DNA of 64,000 nucleotides, taken from contig VFYY01000002.1 in assembly GCA_016871375.1 (NCBI GenBank), positions 1,749 through 65,748 of the forward strand. The letters are read 5' to 3'. Under the pieces are notes generated by a model. The model was not told the origin of the DNA. It made no database searches and saw only the letters and a list, made by a program, of their open reading frames with translations. This DNA is from Acidimicrobiia bacterium (GTDB taxonomy: Bacteria; Acidobacteriota; Vicinamibacteria; Vicinamibacterales; UBA2999). Below are positions 24,367-28,057 of this stretch, one piece after another. A program made the position numbers and the translations under genes. The number at the start of each line of letters is the position of its first letter. Position 1 is the first letter of the stretch.

Positions 24367-27342
24367 GTGGGTACACCTGACGCTCAGGCTCCGGCACGCG
24401 GTCCGCTGGTGGTGCGCGGCGCCCGGACGCACAACCTGAAGAACGTCGACGTCACGCTGCCCTCCGGCAAGCTCGTGATCATCACGGGGGTCAGCGGATC
24501 GGGGAAATCCTCGCTCGCCTTCGACACCATCTACGCGGAGGGGCAGCGGCGCTACGTGGAGTCGCTGTCGGCGTACGCCCGCCAGTTCCTCGAACGGATG
24601 GAGAAACCCGACGTCGATCGCATCGAGGGCATCTGCCCTGCCATCGCGATCCGCCAGAAGAACAGCGTCCGCAACCCGCGGTCGACCGTGGGCACCACGA
24701 CCGAGATCCACGACTACATGCGGCTGTTGTACGCGCGCGTCGGGCGGACGTACTGCCGGCAGTGCGGGCAGGAGGTCGTCCGCGAAACGGCTGAGGTCGT
24801 CGCCCGCCGGATTGGCGAGCTGCCGGACGGCACGCGCGTGATGATCGGGTACGAGATCCCGGTCGTGGAGATGCCGGCTCGAGGCGCCGCTGACGCGGGC
24901 GGCGACGAGGAGACGCCGGACGAGACCGAGGAGCGCAAGGGGACCTTCGATCCCATTGCCGAGACGCTGAACACGCTGCGGCGCCGCGGCTTCGGCCGCC
25001 TGCTCATCGACGGCCGGGCGGTGACGTTCGACGAGGTGGACCCCGCGGCGCTTCGGGGCCAGACGCGGCTCGAGGTCGTGGTCGACCGCCTGCGGATCGA
25101 AGGCGATCTCCGCAGCCGCCTCACCGACTCGATCGAGACGTCGTACCAGGAGGGCGGCGGCGCCGCCTTCGCGATCGTCGTGGGGTCAGACCCCATTCAC
25201 GGGTCGACTCAACCCCTTGATACGCCCCGTGTCATGGGGTCTGACCCCATGAGCCGCCTCGTGTTTTCCGAACGCTTCGAGTGCCGGCCCTGCGGCATCC
25301 CCTACGAAACCCCGCAGCCGCGCCTCTTCTCGTTCAACAACCCGTTCGGCGCCTGCCCGACGTGTCACGGCTTCGGCAACATCATCGAGCTCGACATGGA
25401 CCTCGTCGTGCCCGACCACTCGAAGTCGATCAACCAGGGCGCCATTGAGCCGTGGAGCAAGCCGCACTACCGCGCGCAGCTCGCCGGGCTGAAGCGCGCG
25501 GCGCGCAAGGCCGGCCTGCGCCTCGATGTGCCGTGGGCGGATCTTTCCGCCGACGAGCGCCAGTTCGTCGTCGAAGGCCACGACCCTTCGACAGGCTCAG
25601 GGCAGGGCGACTACGACGGCATCCGCGGCTTCTTCCGCTGGCTGGAGCGCAAGAAGTACAAGGTGCACGTCCGCGTGTTCCTGAGCCGCTATCGCGGATA
25701 CCTGGCCTGTCCGGACTGCGGCGGCGCCCGTCTGCGGCGTGAAGCGCGTGTCGTACGTGTCGGCGACCGGACGATCGATCAGGTGTCGGCGCTGACGGTC
25801 AGCGAGGCGCAGCAGTTCTTCGCCGGTCTGCAGCTCACCGAGAAGGAGGCGGCGGTCGCCGAGAAGGTGCTGCGGGAGATCCGGCGGCGGTTGTCGTTCC
25901 TTGCCGACGTGGGCCTCGACTACCTGACGCTGGACCGGCTGTCGTCCACGCTCTCCGGCGGCGAGTCGCAGCGCATCAACCTCGCCACCTCACTCGGGTC
26001 CGCGCTCGTCGGGACGCTGTACGTGCTGGACGAGCCGTCGATCGGCCTGCACTCGCGCGACAACCAGCGCCTGATCGACATCCTGCTGCAGCTGCGCGAC
26101 CAGGGCAACACGGTCCTCGTCGTCGAGCACGACGAGGACATGATCCGCGTCGCCGACCACATCGTCGACATCGGACTCGGCGCCGGCGAGCAGGGCGGCC
26201 GCGTGGTGTTCTCGGGCGATCTGCCCGGCCTGCTGCAGGAGCCGCGGTCGCTGACCGCGAAGTACCTGCGCAACGAGCTGGCCATTCCGGTGCCGACTCC
26301 GCGCCGCCGCGGCACGGGCCAGAAGATCACGCTGTACGGCGCCAGCGAGCACAACCTCAAGCACGTGGACGTCGACATCCCGCTGAACACGCTGACGTGC
26401 GTGACCGGCGTGAGCGGGTCGGGCAAGTCCACGCTCGTGCACGACGTGCTGTACGCCGCCATCAAGCGCGCCAAGGGCGACTGGGACCGCCGCGTCGGCG
26501 TGTGCCGCGGCCTCGAGGGGCTCGAATACATCAGCGACGTCATCCTGGTGGACCAGACGCCCATCGGCCGGACGCCGCGCTCGAACCCGGTGACGTACCT
26601 GAAGGCGTTCGACCCGGTTCGCGAGCTCTTCGCGCTGACGAAGGACGCGCGCTCGCGCGGGCTGACCGCGAGCCACTTCTCGTTCAACGTCCCGGGCGGC
26701 CGCTGCGAGGCCTGCCAGGGCGAGGGCGAGGTGCGCGTCGAGATGCAGTTCCTCGCCGACGTGTTCGTGCCCTGCGACCAGTGCGACGGCATGCGCTTCA
26801 AGCCGCAGGTGCTCGAGGTGCGCTACCGCGGCAGGAACGTGCACCAGGTGCTGGACATGACCGTGCGCGAGGCGCTGACCTTCTTCGGCACGTCGCCGAA
26901 GGTGCTGCGCCGCCTGCAGGTGCTCGACGAGATCGGCCTCGGCTACGTCCGTCTCGGCCAGCCGGCGACGACGCTGTCGGGCGGGGAGGCGCAGCGGATC
27001 AAGATCGCCGCGCACCTGGCGTCGTTCGGCGGCGAGCGGCTGCTCTACATCCTCGACGAGCCGACGACCGGCCTGCACTTCGACGACATCGCGAAGCTGC
27101 TGGCCGCGTTCCGCAAGCTGGTCGAGGCAGGGCACACGCTGCTCGTGATCGAGCACAACCTCGACGTGATCAAGACGGCGGACCACGTCATCGACCTCGG
27201 CCCCGAGGGCGGCGAGGCGGGCGGCCGGGTGGTGGCCGCCGGCACGCCGGAAAAGGTGGCCGCGGTGGAGGCCTCGCACACGGGGCGCGCGCTGCGCCAG
27301 GTCCTGGCGGACGGCCGGACCAATGCCTACGCCACGCGGTAG
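24367..27342 (+). CDS. uvrA: Excinuclease ABC subunit A
   Basis: 991 aa with a GTG start. Two ABC ATPase modules (GVSGSGKSSLAFDTIYAEGQRRYVESLSAYARQF; GVSGSGKSTLVHDVLY; LSGGE..LYILDEPTTGLH). Zinc-finger Cys pairs (CRQCG, CPTCHGFG, CPDCGGARL, CEACQGEG). Confidence 0.96.
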   Translation: MGTPDAQAPARGPLVVRGARTHNLKNVDVTLPSGKLVIITGVSGSGKSSLAFDTIYAEGQRRYVESLSAYARQFLERMEKPDVDRIEGICPAIAIRQKNSVRNPRSTVGTTTEIHDYMRLLYARVGRTYCRQCGQEVVRETAEVVARRIGELPDGTRVMIGYEIPVVEMPARGAADAGGDEETPDETEERKGTFDPIAETLNTLRRRGFGRLLIDGRAVTFDEVDPAALRGQTRLEVVVDRLRIEGDLRSRLTDSIETSYQEGGGAAFAIVVGSDPIHGSTQPLDTPRVMGSDPMSRLVFSERFECRPCGIPYETPQPRLFSFNNPFGACPTCHGFGNIIELDMDLVVPDHSKSINQGAIEPWSKPHYRAQLAGLKRAARKAGLRLDVPWADLSADERQFVVEGHDPSTGSGQGDYDGIRGFFRWLERKKYKVHVRVFLSRYRGYLACPDCGGARLRREARVVRVGDRTIDQVSALTVSEAQQFFAGLQLTEKEAAVAEKVLREIRRRLSFLADVGLDYLTLDRLSSTLSGGESQRINLATSLGSALVGTLYVLDEPSIGLHSRDNQRLIDILLQLRDQGNTVLVVEHDEDMIRVADHIVDIGLGAGEQGGRVVFSGDLPGLLQEPRSLTAKYLRNELAIPVPTPRRRGTGQKITLYGASEHNLKHVDVDIPLNTLTCVTGVSGSGKSTLVHDVLYAAIKRAKGDWDRRVGVCRGLEGLEYISDVILVDQTPIGRTPRSNPVTYLKAFDPVRELFALTKDARSRGLTASHFSFNVPGGRCEACQGEGEVRVEMQFLADVFVPCDQCDGMRFKPQVLEVRYRGRNVHQVLDMTVREALTFFGTSPKVLRRLQVLDEIGLGYVRLGQPATTLSGGEAQRIKIAAHLASFGGERLLYILDEPTTGLHFDDIAKLLAAFRKLVEAGHTLLVIEHNLDVIKTADHVIDLGPEGGEAGGRVVAAGTPEKVAAVEASHTGRALRQVLADGRTNAYATR
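25181..25249. repeat. 69-bp palindromic element inserted in frame in uvrA
   Basis: TGGGGTCAGACCCCAT (25181-25196) and its exact reverse complement ATGGGGTCTGACCCCA (25234-25249) bracket 37 bp. The total of 69 bp is 23 codons (GSDPIHGSTQPLDTPRVMGSDP). Confidence 0.85.
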
Positions 27343-28057
27343 CAAGCCGGGTCCGCGACGCGATGCGAGCGGAACCCGGCCTACGTACGTAGGGCGGGTC
27401 CGCGCCACGAACACGAGTGGACCCGCCGTCCTGCCGCGATCGTTCTACAGCCGCCCGACGCTGAAGGTCGCTGAAGATCTCCTCGGGAAGGTCCTCGTCC
27501 ACCGCACGCCGGACGGCGTCGCGGCCGGGATGATTGTCGAGGCCGAGGCCTACATCGGCGAGGACGATCCGGCGTGTCACGCCGCGCCGGGCCCGACGCG
27601 CCGCAACGCGCCGCTCTACGGACCGCCCGGCATCGCCTACGTCTACCTGAACTACGGGATCCATCACCTCGTGAACGCGGTCACCGAGTCCGAGGGAGAT
27701 CCAGCCGCGGTGCTGATTCGTGCGCTCGATCCGGTTGAAGGGCTGGCGCTGATGCGCAGGCGCCGCGCAACGGACGGACGGCACATCGAGGAACACGACC
27801 TGTGCCGCGGGCCGGGGAACCTCACGCGGGCGCTCGGCATCACGCTCACGGACAACCTGCTCGACCTGACCCTTCGACCAGGCTCAGGGCAGGCGTCGGG
27901 CCGTCTCACGATCGAGGATCGCCGCTTGAGGCGCGGCAGCGTGGCGTGGGGTCCACGCATCGGAATTAGGGTTGGCGTCGATAAGCGCTGGAGATGCTGG
28001 ATTGCCGGACACCCGAGCGTTTCCGCGCCGAGAGCGAGTGGTACAGTTAAGAGATAA
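27323..28057 (+). CDS. mpg: DNA-3-methyladenine glycosylase (Mpg/AAG family)
   Basis: FYSRPTLKVAEDLLGKVLVH..IVEAEAYIGEDDPACHA..PGIAYVYLNYGIHHLVN is diagnostic. The start is uncertain: the only in-frame ATG (27323) overlaps uvrA by 20 nt, and the first 35 or so codons run through two hairpin repeats. Confidence 0.8.
   Translation: MPTPRGSKPGPRRDASGTRPTYVGRVRATNTSGPAVLPRSFYSRPTLKVAEDLLGKVLVHRTPDGVAAGMIVEAEAYIGEDDPACHAAPGPTRRNAPLYGPPGIAYVYLNYGIHHLVNAVTESEGDPAAVLIRALDPVEGLALMRRRRATDGRHIEEHDLCRGPGNLTRALGITLTDNLLDLTLRPGSGQASGRLTIEDRRLRRGSVAWGPRIGIRVGVDKRWRCWIAGHPSVSAPRASGTVKR

Follow-up and report, generated by a model that had tools for sequence, protein, structure and literature searches.

Two adjacent DNA-repair genes, uvrA and mpg, in a 64,000-nt stretch of the genome of a soil acidobacterium (contig VFYY01000002.1, positions 1,749 to 65,748; hereafter the window) each carry one in-frame copy of a 24-nt module built around a short hairpin. 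The arms of this hairpin are the repeats that adjoin the gene of a single-domain GIY-YIG protein of about 90 residues (aa) across phyla. The module is therefore proposed, with a probability of about 0.6, to be a non-autonomous 24-nt DNA and, as a dispersed hairpin, the recognition site of a very small nuclease cassette. The source assembly (labelled G000; 4.2 Mb, 295 contigs, 68.9% G+C) was compared with 41 related genomes, labelled G001 and so on, the loci being labelled L002 and so on.

The sequence check of the window found CCCTTCGACAGGCTCAGGGCAGGGC at 25584-25608 within uvrA and CCCTTCGACCAGGCTCAGGGCAGGC at 27870-27894 within mpg, the latter read LRPGSGQAS, and both are translated in frame, in the 991-aa and the 244-aa open reading frame (ORF), respectively, as the preliminary description of this DNA had stated. 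The unit consists of CCCYTCGAC-N3-GCTCRGGG, a weak 20-nt hairpin that has a 2-nt loop in the uvrA copy, followed by CARG, which gives 24 nt in total. Its 23-nt pattern is expected 0.00 times by chance in 100 dinucleotide-preserving shuffles of the window, and no Rfam family matched positions 24000-29000 at E values up to 1. A census of the whole assembly allowing at most one mismatch yielded 143 units, of which 84 are solo, 31 belong to eight tandem arrays with an exact 24-nt period, all in frame, and 28 form inverted pairs. The reversed pattern, used as a control, gave 0 matches in all 41 relatives, against 66 exact matches of the unit in G000. The copy number is uneven over the relatives (66, 49, 17, 16, 11 and so on), and 22 of these genomes have no unit.

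In the solo units positions 4 and 17 covary (CG 51, TA 29, TG 3, CA 0), which fits an outer stem of 4 bp, and the base immediately after GGG is C in 97% of them. The predicted fold of a single unit is weak, about -6 to -7 kcal/mol, and that of the pairs reaches -24 to -34 kcal/mol. The preliminary description had regarded the copies in uvrA and mpg as fragments, each one arm of a palindrome present in full further downstream. The palindrome at 59585-59624 is indeed made of two inverted units folding as a single long hairpin (-34.1 kcal/mol), but the copies in the two genes are whole 24-nt modules, each ending in a CARG tail; this tail is absent from the inverted pairs, which carry covarying triplets instead, e.g. 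TGA..TCA..TGA. Among the pair units headed by TGA in G000, this triplet is the stop codon of a called gene in 3 of 5 cases.

Two in-frame arrays of G000 are the longest: one (C212:1-996) encodes seven PSTSLGT-type repeats in a pterin-binding, FolP-like enzyme, and the other has eight units within a PQQ beta-propeller protein (C21:24602-26710). Several arrays and units of the relatives lie at contig ends, and array lengths may be under-assembled. Double-hairpin pairs were also observed on both sides of a two-gene block in G000 (C39:20068-21305), whose first ORF begins MRIFGIDPG; judged from this N-terminus, the genes are probably ruvC followed by ruvA. On its left side the pair begins with a TGA that is apparently the stop codon of the upstream gene, and the ATG in GGGATGA at the right end is apparently the start of the putative ruvC.

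The insertion of the module was deduced from orthologues of uvrA and the adjacent mpg taken from 29 relatives within its family or order. The mpg insert comprises exactly 24 nt, or 8 codons, and is missing from 18 of 18 orthologues; the occupied site CTGAC/CCTTCGACCAGGCTCAGGGCAGGC/GTCG corresponds to the empty site CTGAC^GTCGAG of L002, with no target duplication and an ambiguity of 1 nt. The UvrA insert likewise comprises 8 codons, EGHD[PSTGSGQG]DYDG compared with EGDG-DYEG, and is missing from 26 of 30 orthologues, the empty sites in uvrA reading ...GGCGACGGC^GACTAC.... Both inserts occur where homologues are not conserved, which agrees with the earlier proposal: the Pfam UvrA_DNA-bind match stops at residue 406, exactly where the insert lies, in a segment of variable length (residues about 400-415 in the alignment to Geobacillus UvrA, PDB 2R6F), and the phmmer alignment of Mpg to human AAG in the PDB ends at residue 183, at the start of the insert. 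The uvrC module is missing from three orthologues. A chimeric query joined from 14 further host segments recovered the orthologous sites in 12 relatives, and every one of the 16 host sites compared with orthologues appeared as a clean gap of 8 codons or n x 8 codons. The module is gained either as one entire unit or as several in tandem and, 24 being a multiple of 3, it stays in frame.

The connection with a nuclease came from two small GIY-YIG genes of G000 located outside the window (see the table). At 60-90 nt upstream of both genes there is a hairpin, CCCTGAGC-N19-GTCGAAGGG or TCCCGAGC-N15-GTCGAGGGA, whose arms are the reverse complement of those of the unit, separated by a long loop; the chance of finding one such hairpin per 300-nt window is 0.011. 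A homologous gene with the upstream hairpin is present in eight relatives (G001, G002, G017, G024, G025, G027, G032 and G036), among which G027 has a full pair at the gene. In a metagenomic set of 80 loci encoding homologues at 52-100% identity, 77 of which served for the hairpin counts, a hairpin with exact arms lies within 300 nt upstream in 41 loci and downstream in 25, compared with 0 of 77 for the reversed control (P = 6e-16). In at least ten of the metagenomic loci inverted units with short loops closely enclose the gene, the upstream one reading xCCTGAGC-TT-GTCGAAGGx' and the downstream one xCCTTCGAC-AA-GCTCAGGx'. Homologues were also found in 12 of 16 unit-bearing genomes of other phyla, in up to 7 copies, and 10 of the 30 homologue loci in other phyla have the hairpin, mostly near the gene, including genomes of 38-47% G+C. 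Among the 41 relatives, those with a hairpin-linked gene contain more units (Mann-Whitney P = 5e-4; Fisher P = 0.001 for at least 4 units).

Both GIY-YIG genes of G000 are situated directly 3' of an RNA gene, a tmRNA (tag ADSQYALAA) in one case and tRNA-Leu(GAG) in the other, with more palindromes and a conserved GACGATGGCATCGTCGTC leader ahead of each GIY-YIG gene; the loci look like a small cassette integrated at tRNA/tmRNA 3' ends. Six to seven copies of the gene were observed in G046 (Patescibacteria, about 1 Mb; loci L446, L461, L466, L470 and L472) and in G048 (Kiritimatiellae), a very high load for a genome of 1 Mb. At three G048 loci the identical unit CCCTCGACAAGCTCGGG is located about 50 nt past the gene.

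Features of the window and of the source genome G000 (window positions unless a contig is given)
Feature	Position	Strand	Remarks
uvrA ORF, host	24367..27342	+	991 aa; Pfam; insert within the insertion (UvrA_DNA-bind) domain
24-nt module in uvrA	25584..25608	+	CCCTTCGAC-AG-GCTCAGGG, 2-nt loop, then CAGGG(C); net 8 codons PSTGSGQG
mpg ORF, host	27323..28057	+	244 aa, methylpurine-DNA glycosylase; Pfam PF02245, E = 3.8e-61
24-nt module in mpg	27870..27893	+	CCCTTCGAC-CAG-GCTCAGGG-CAGG; 8 codons LRPGSGQA
24-nt module in uvrC	46326..46349	+	core 46326-46345, tail CACG; read PFDCAQGT; host by Pfam
Solo unit, spacer 170 nt upstream of rpsA	56440..56463	-	core 56444-56463, tail CATG
Inverted pair of two units, double-hairpin form	59585..59624	.	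inside ACAD-like ORF; arm 59606-59624 (-)
RAYT (Y1 HUH transposase) gene	60257-60895		inside the window
Small GIY-YIG gene, 95-aa ORF	G000 C118:6920-7135		Pfam GIY-YIG E = 8e-19; outside the window
Small GIY-YIG gene, 98-aa ORF	G000 C20:35741-35953		Pfam GIY-YIG E = 7e-16; outside the window

The exact 24-mer was found in at least 120 stretches from Acidobacteriota, Nitrospirota, Chloroflexota, Planctomycetota, Verrucomicrobiota, Patescibacteria, Gemmatimonadota, Bdellovibrionota and Bacteroidota, including an Aequorivita isolate, and on 46 viral contigs. In the genomes with the exact 24-mer CT usually follows the tail and the loop is mostly TTC, TCC or TGC. A nuclease and its hairpin travelling together across phyla would explain a near-identical 24-mer in such distant bacteria. 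In the Acidobacteriaceae (L095 and other Terriglobia loci) the 24-mer was observed usually inside a longer composite repeat, ...GAGAGATCCCTTCGACTTCGCTCAGGGCAGGCTCTTCACTGCGTTCAGGATGACAA..., as a building block of larger elements. A literature search by the motif strings or by UPF0213/YhbQ returned nothing relevant.

A model for such an association is provided by the Ssn single-stranded DNA nucleases and their NTS/SRM hairpin repeats, with the layout NTS-ssnA-NTS (Nat Commun 2025, PMC11893778). Judged from genes and sequence, both systems consist of a single-domain GIY-YIG protein of about 90-100 aa with adjoining inverted hairpin repeats, and both have repeats that are hairpins with an orientation, about 20 nt long, whose palindrome runs directly into a conserved C-x-R-G tail. 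These repeats are dispersed in tens to hundreds of copies, and both systems occur in many phyla. Binding by Ssn hinges on the C that follows the palindrome (PMC11893778), which corresponds to the nearly invariant C of the G000 solo units. By this analogy the small GIY-YIG enzyme probably recognises the hairpin, and would do so in single-stranded DNA as Ssn nucleases do with NTS hairpins, the dispersed units being copies of the recognition site of the nuclease that have spread. The pasting step could be nick-induced copying, or template switching across the GG/CC microhomology described below. The unit differs from the Ssn repeats in its hairpin sequence and in having no 5' CGTC tag, and its mostly in-frame intragenic 24-nt inserts and arrays are not described in PMC11893778, which does not mention this hairpin either.

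The distribution of the units over coding sequences was studied with our own codon-usage gene calls. Solo units lie within called genes in 70 of 84 cases (83%) and array units in 26 of 31, and 9 of the 28 pair-form units lie outside called genes. The genome-wide strand and frame test gave a sense to antisense ratio of 50:20 for genic solos (P = 4e-4), all genic array units being sense, and solo counts of 27, 13, 10, 13, 5 and 2 over the six frames (chi-square P = 5e-6), the two commonest being read PST.LGAG and PALS.VEG. The orientation of the units showed no relation to the local GC skew of G000 (35/77), a skew that is itself weak, and the strand bias was therefore attributed to selection on the encoded peptide; a transcription-linked mechanism may also contribute. 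Copies survive where the 8 extra residues form a harmless loop, and this accounts for the overrepresented frames, PST..LGAG and PALS.VEG, as well as for the sense excess.

The same data bear on the possibility that the module is an ordinary repetitive extragenic palindrome (REP), or a REPIN formed of two of them, mobilised by a REP-associated tyrosine transposase (RAYT, a Y1 HUH transposase). The size, the hairpin and the inverted pairs are REP-like, the absence of target duplication fits single-strand HUH transposition, and Y1_Tnp genes are present in 18 of 19 relatives with units compared with 10 of 22 without (Fisher P = 8e-4). Nevertheless, REPs are predominantly extragenic and the units are not, their orientation is not linked to GC skew, and neither a GTAG nor a CGTC tag appears in the consensus of the unit and its flanks. 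Moreover, the five Y1 genes of G000 all lack flanking units, and their proteins have no homologue in the unit-rich G036. RAYT was consequently rejected as the mobiliser in spite of its correlated presence, and we consider this explanation quite unlikely. A wider scan of G000 for genes of whatever kind enclosed by units, made with a loose and noisy pattern, gave no convincing candidate.

At the junctions, the sequence GG^CC is already present in the empty sites of GyrB, MutL, Lhr, a MutS-like gene and G004 MutL. Among 76 solos, GG precedes the unit in 34%, compared with a genome background of 8.5% (P = 3e-10), a purine (R) occupies position -1 in 88%, and C follows the tail in 76%, compared with 34% (P = 1e-13). 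In the independently expanded genome G036, GG precedes 19 and CC follows 18 of 31 units. The landing sites thus already read GG^CC or GR^CS and show no target duplication. With CC at its start and GG at its end, a unit meets its neighbour in an array at the very sequence that serves as target. The exact breakpoints can be shifted by up to 4 nt, with no duplicated base, a footprint of the kind left by recombination or copying over a very short stretch of shared sequence. As a possible guide to the target, the loop triplet was tried and discarded, no flank offset matching the loop or its complement above permuted controls.

A footprint of this type could also arise with no dedicated enzyme, by microhomology template switching or by slippage from arrays, in which case the gene-side hairpins would be further insertions in a permissive spot. 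The GG/CC microhomology at both junctions, the lack of target duplication and the unit-length arrays are all consistent with it, as is the pair nested within the loop of the gene-linked hairpin of G032. This explanation leaves unaccounted for the near-identity of all 20 non-loop positions across many phyla. Nor does it explain why, in dozens of unrelated contigs, some of them from AT-rich genomes, the hairpins keep a fixed place beside the nuclease gene and face each other as inverted copies, and we regard it as unlikely.

The comparison of orthologues also showed recurrent insertion into the same loops. One UvrA loop occurs in several forms, namely a solo unit in G000, a 45-nt pair in G005, a decayed pair in G014 and a probable remnant in G021, and in the UvrA tree the occupied lineages fall into three separate clades. 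MutL has one unit in G000, and in G004 and G014 a unit 12 nt downstream in another frame; GyrB has one unit in G000 and two in G004. The MCM site is occupied also in G007 and the ETF site also in G004. Such recurrent hits are better explained by a target preference and a small number of permissive loops than by ancestry. It might be argued that these residues were present ancestrally as loops, or as linkers under selection, and that other lineages lost them, or that they are artefacts of assembly, as the UvrA, GyrB, MCM and ETF sites are occupied in more than one genus and several units lie at contig ends. Yet the same DNA is read in all six frames, the occupied UvrA lineages belong to separate clades, and in-frame units were found in conserved genes of 19 independent assemblies and of an isolate genome, so that this objection is hardly credible. 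A second UvrA paralogue, in an open frame of 1473 aa (G000 C10:27439-31857), contains a unit (HPSTALGA) just before the SLTGAYL motif, at a site different from that of the window uvrA.

An excess of DNA-repair genes among the hosts, which had been noticed within the window, was confirmed when all 72 host genes of solos and arrays were annotated with Pfam. Nine of them are repair genes, encoding UvrA, the second UvrA paralogue, UvrC, Mpg, a MutS domain-V protein, MutL, Lhr, the LigD primase-polymerase and XseB, and two more hosts, GyrB/ParE and an SNF2 helicase, belong to DNA metabolism. The excess is about 4-6 times expectation, with binomial P values of 1e-5, 3e-4 and 0.01 at assumed general backgrounds of 2, 3 and 5%. 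The units of G004 in GyrB and MutL were mentioned above. The bias may arise because large multidomain proteins are tolerant of inserts, because units enter genes that damage causes to be unwound, or through hitch-hiking with mutators.

A bias of this kind would also be expected of functional signals kept in repair genes by selection, like DNA uptake sequences (DUS) or uptake signal sequences (USS). Besides the 9 of 72 hosts, the inverted pairs at gene ends point in this direction, and DUS/USS are reported to show a comparable bias (Davidsen 2004, discussed in PMC2817400): these short repeats are over-represented in repair and replication genes, and their coding copies occupy tolerated frames and poorly conserved segments. 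On re-examination the DUS bias itself was not confirmed as strong (PMC2817400). DUS/USS are present in thousands of copies and depend on point mutation and uptake drive, whereas G000 holds no more than about 140 units over its 4.2 Mb and these arise as 24-nt block insertions; furthermore, most relatives have no units and the bias is not seen in other unit-bearing genomes. A signal function is accordingly very improbable.

It is tempting to speculate that cutting, re-insertion and the preference for repair genes, taken together, define a pan-bacterial, phage-borne mini selfish system composed of a single-strand GIY-YIG nuclease of about 90 aa and a hairpin of 17-24 nt, although we consider this wider scheme doubtful. 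The nuclease would cut the same position in neighbouring units and free single strands of unit length, and these strands, or nick-primed copying, would re-enter at GG^CC sites exposed as single-stranded DNA. Repair genes might be hit most because they are transcribed and unwound when damage activates the system, or because weaker repair favours the element or a mutator host. If true, no smaller mobile DNA driven by a nuclease and adding peptide loops to proteins would be known.

Several points weigh against the nuclease cassette, or against a preference for repair genes as a part of it. GIY-YIG nucleases cut DNA and do not join it, so that the insertion step is left with no known enzyme. The GIY-YIG genes of G000 have the long-loop hairpin upstream only and not on both sides, and dispersed units occur near a GIY-YIG gene at 1 of 166 loci, which is chance level. 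No hairpin-linked GIY-YIG gene was found in G003, G004 and G005, which contain 6-17 units; these are metagenome-assembled genomes (MAGs), G003 and G004 being 93-94% complete. Conversely, G027 has the gene and the pair but no CARG-tailed unit. The nearest solved structures to the GIY-YIG protein are the UPF0213 proteins 1YWL and 1ZG2 (E = 5e-15), which is a further difference from Ssn, and the SRM pattern HGTCWYN(0-2)YYVSBRHN(0-5)WNVSBRGN(0-2)RNCYNB matched neither strand of the uvrA, mpg, array and pair forms, although it matched the NTS control. As regards repair genes, the calculation depends on the assumed background given above; G036 has 2 repair hosts among 25 annotated, again Lhr and LigD (P = 0.17), a coordinate comparison placed 0 of 27 units of G002 and G003 at matched orthologues of these host families, and in other phyla 0 of 125 units fell into the same 11 gene families. 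The repair bias is real in G000 but lineage-specific, and strong only there.

The mobile repeats SDR1-8 of Nostoc and Anabaena are reportedly about 21-27 nt long and inserted precisely, with no transposase known; they differ from the module in sequence and host phylum, and are not known to have a link with a nuclease. Rickettsia palindromic elements (RPEs) are said to be selfish palindromic DNA inserted in frame in protein genes and translated as surface loops, roughly 100-150 bp long and restricted to Rickettsia. The module resembles them as a block insert that keeps the frame and is absent from orthologues, here at 16 sites, and differs in its length of 24 nt, its cross-phylum occurrence and its in-frame tandem arrays. 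RPEs are also mentioned in the study of GTAG/CGTC REPs by Di Nocera et al. (2013, PMC3733652), according to whom intragenic REPs are often located in replication and repair genes, a qualitative remark. In Opitutus terrae REPs were found in both uvrA genes at different sites and in a DNA ligase gene (PMC3733652), just as both UvrA paralogues and a ligase (LigD) are hit in G000; the unit differs in having neither a GTAG/CGTC tag nor a RAYT link, and the bias has here been quantified. The repair-gene bias of such repeats was thus already published in qualitative form (PMC3733652), and what is new is the match of the hairpin arms with the repeats beside the GIY-YIG gene.

Two further observations concern the host genes in the window. 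The same uvrA contains a second, different insert, a 69-bp palindromic one at 25181-25249 read GSDPIHGSTQPLDTPRVMGSDPMS, and therefore holds two repeat families. The mpg gene overlaps the end of uvrA by 20 nt, and its ends (27323-27470 and 27923-28057) are atypical in codon composition, with a G+C content at third codon positions of 0.66-0.74 compared with 0.93 in uvrA; for this reason mpg was missed by the codon-usage gene caller, and the gene-based counts given above are approximate.

The physical and statistical link to a small GIY-YIG gene provides a candidate for what recognises the 24-mer and, if true, would extend the Ssn principle of nuclease and hairpin to a second hairpin family, whose dispersed copies are translated. 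The counts in G000 put the first numbers to the qualitative remark on repeats gathering in repair genes, and indicate a bias that is lineage-specific and not universal. The repeated hits in UvrA, MutL and GyrB loops across genera matter for the reading of indels in alignments and for the annotation of MAGs.

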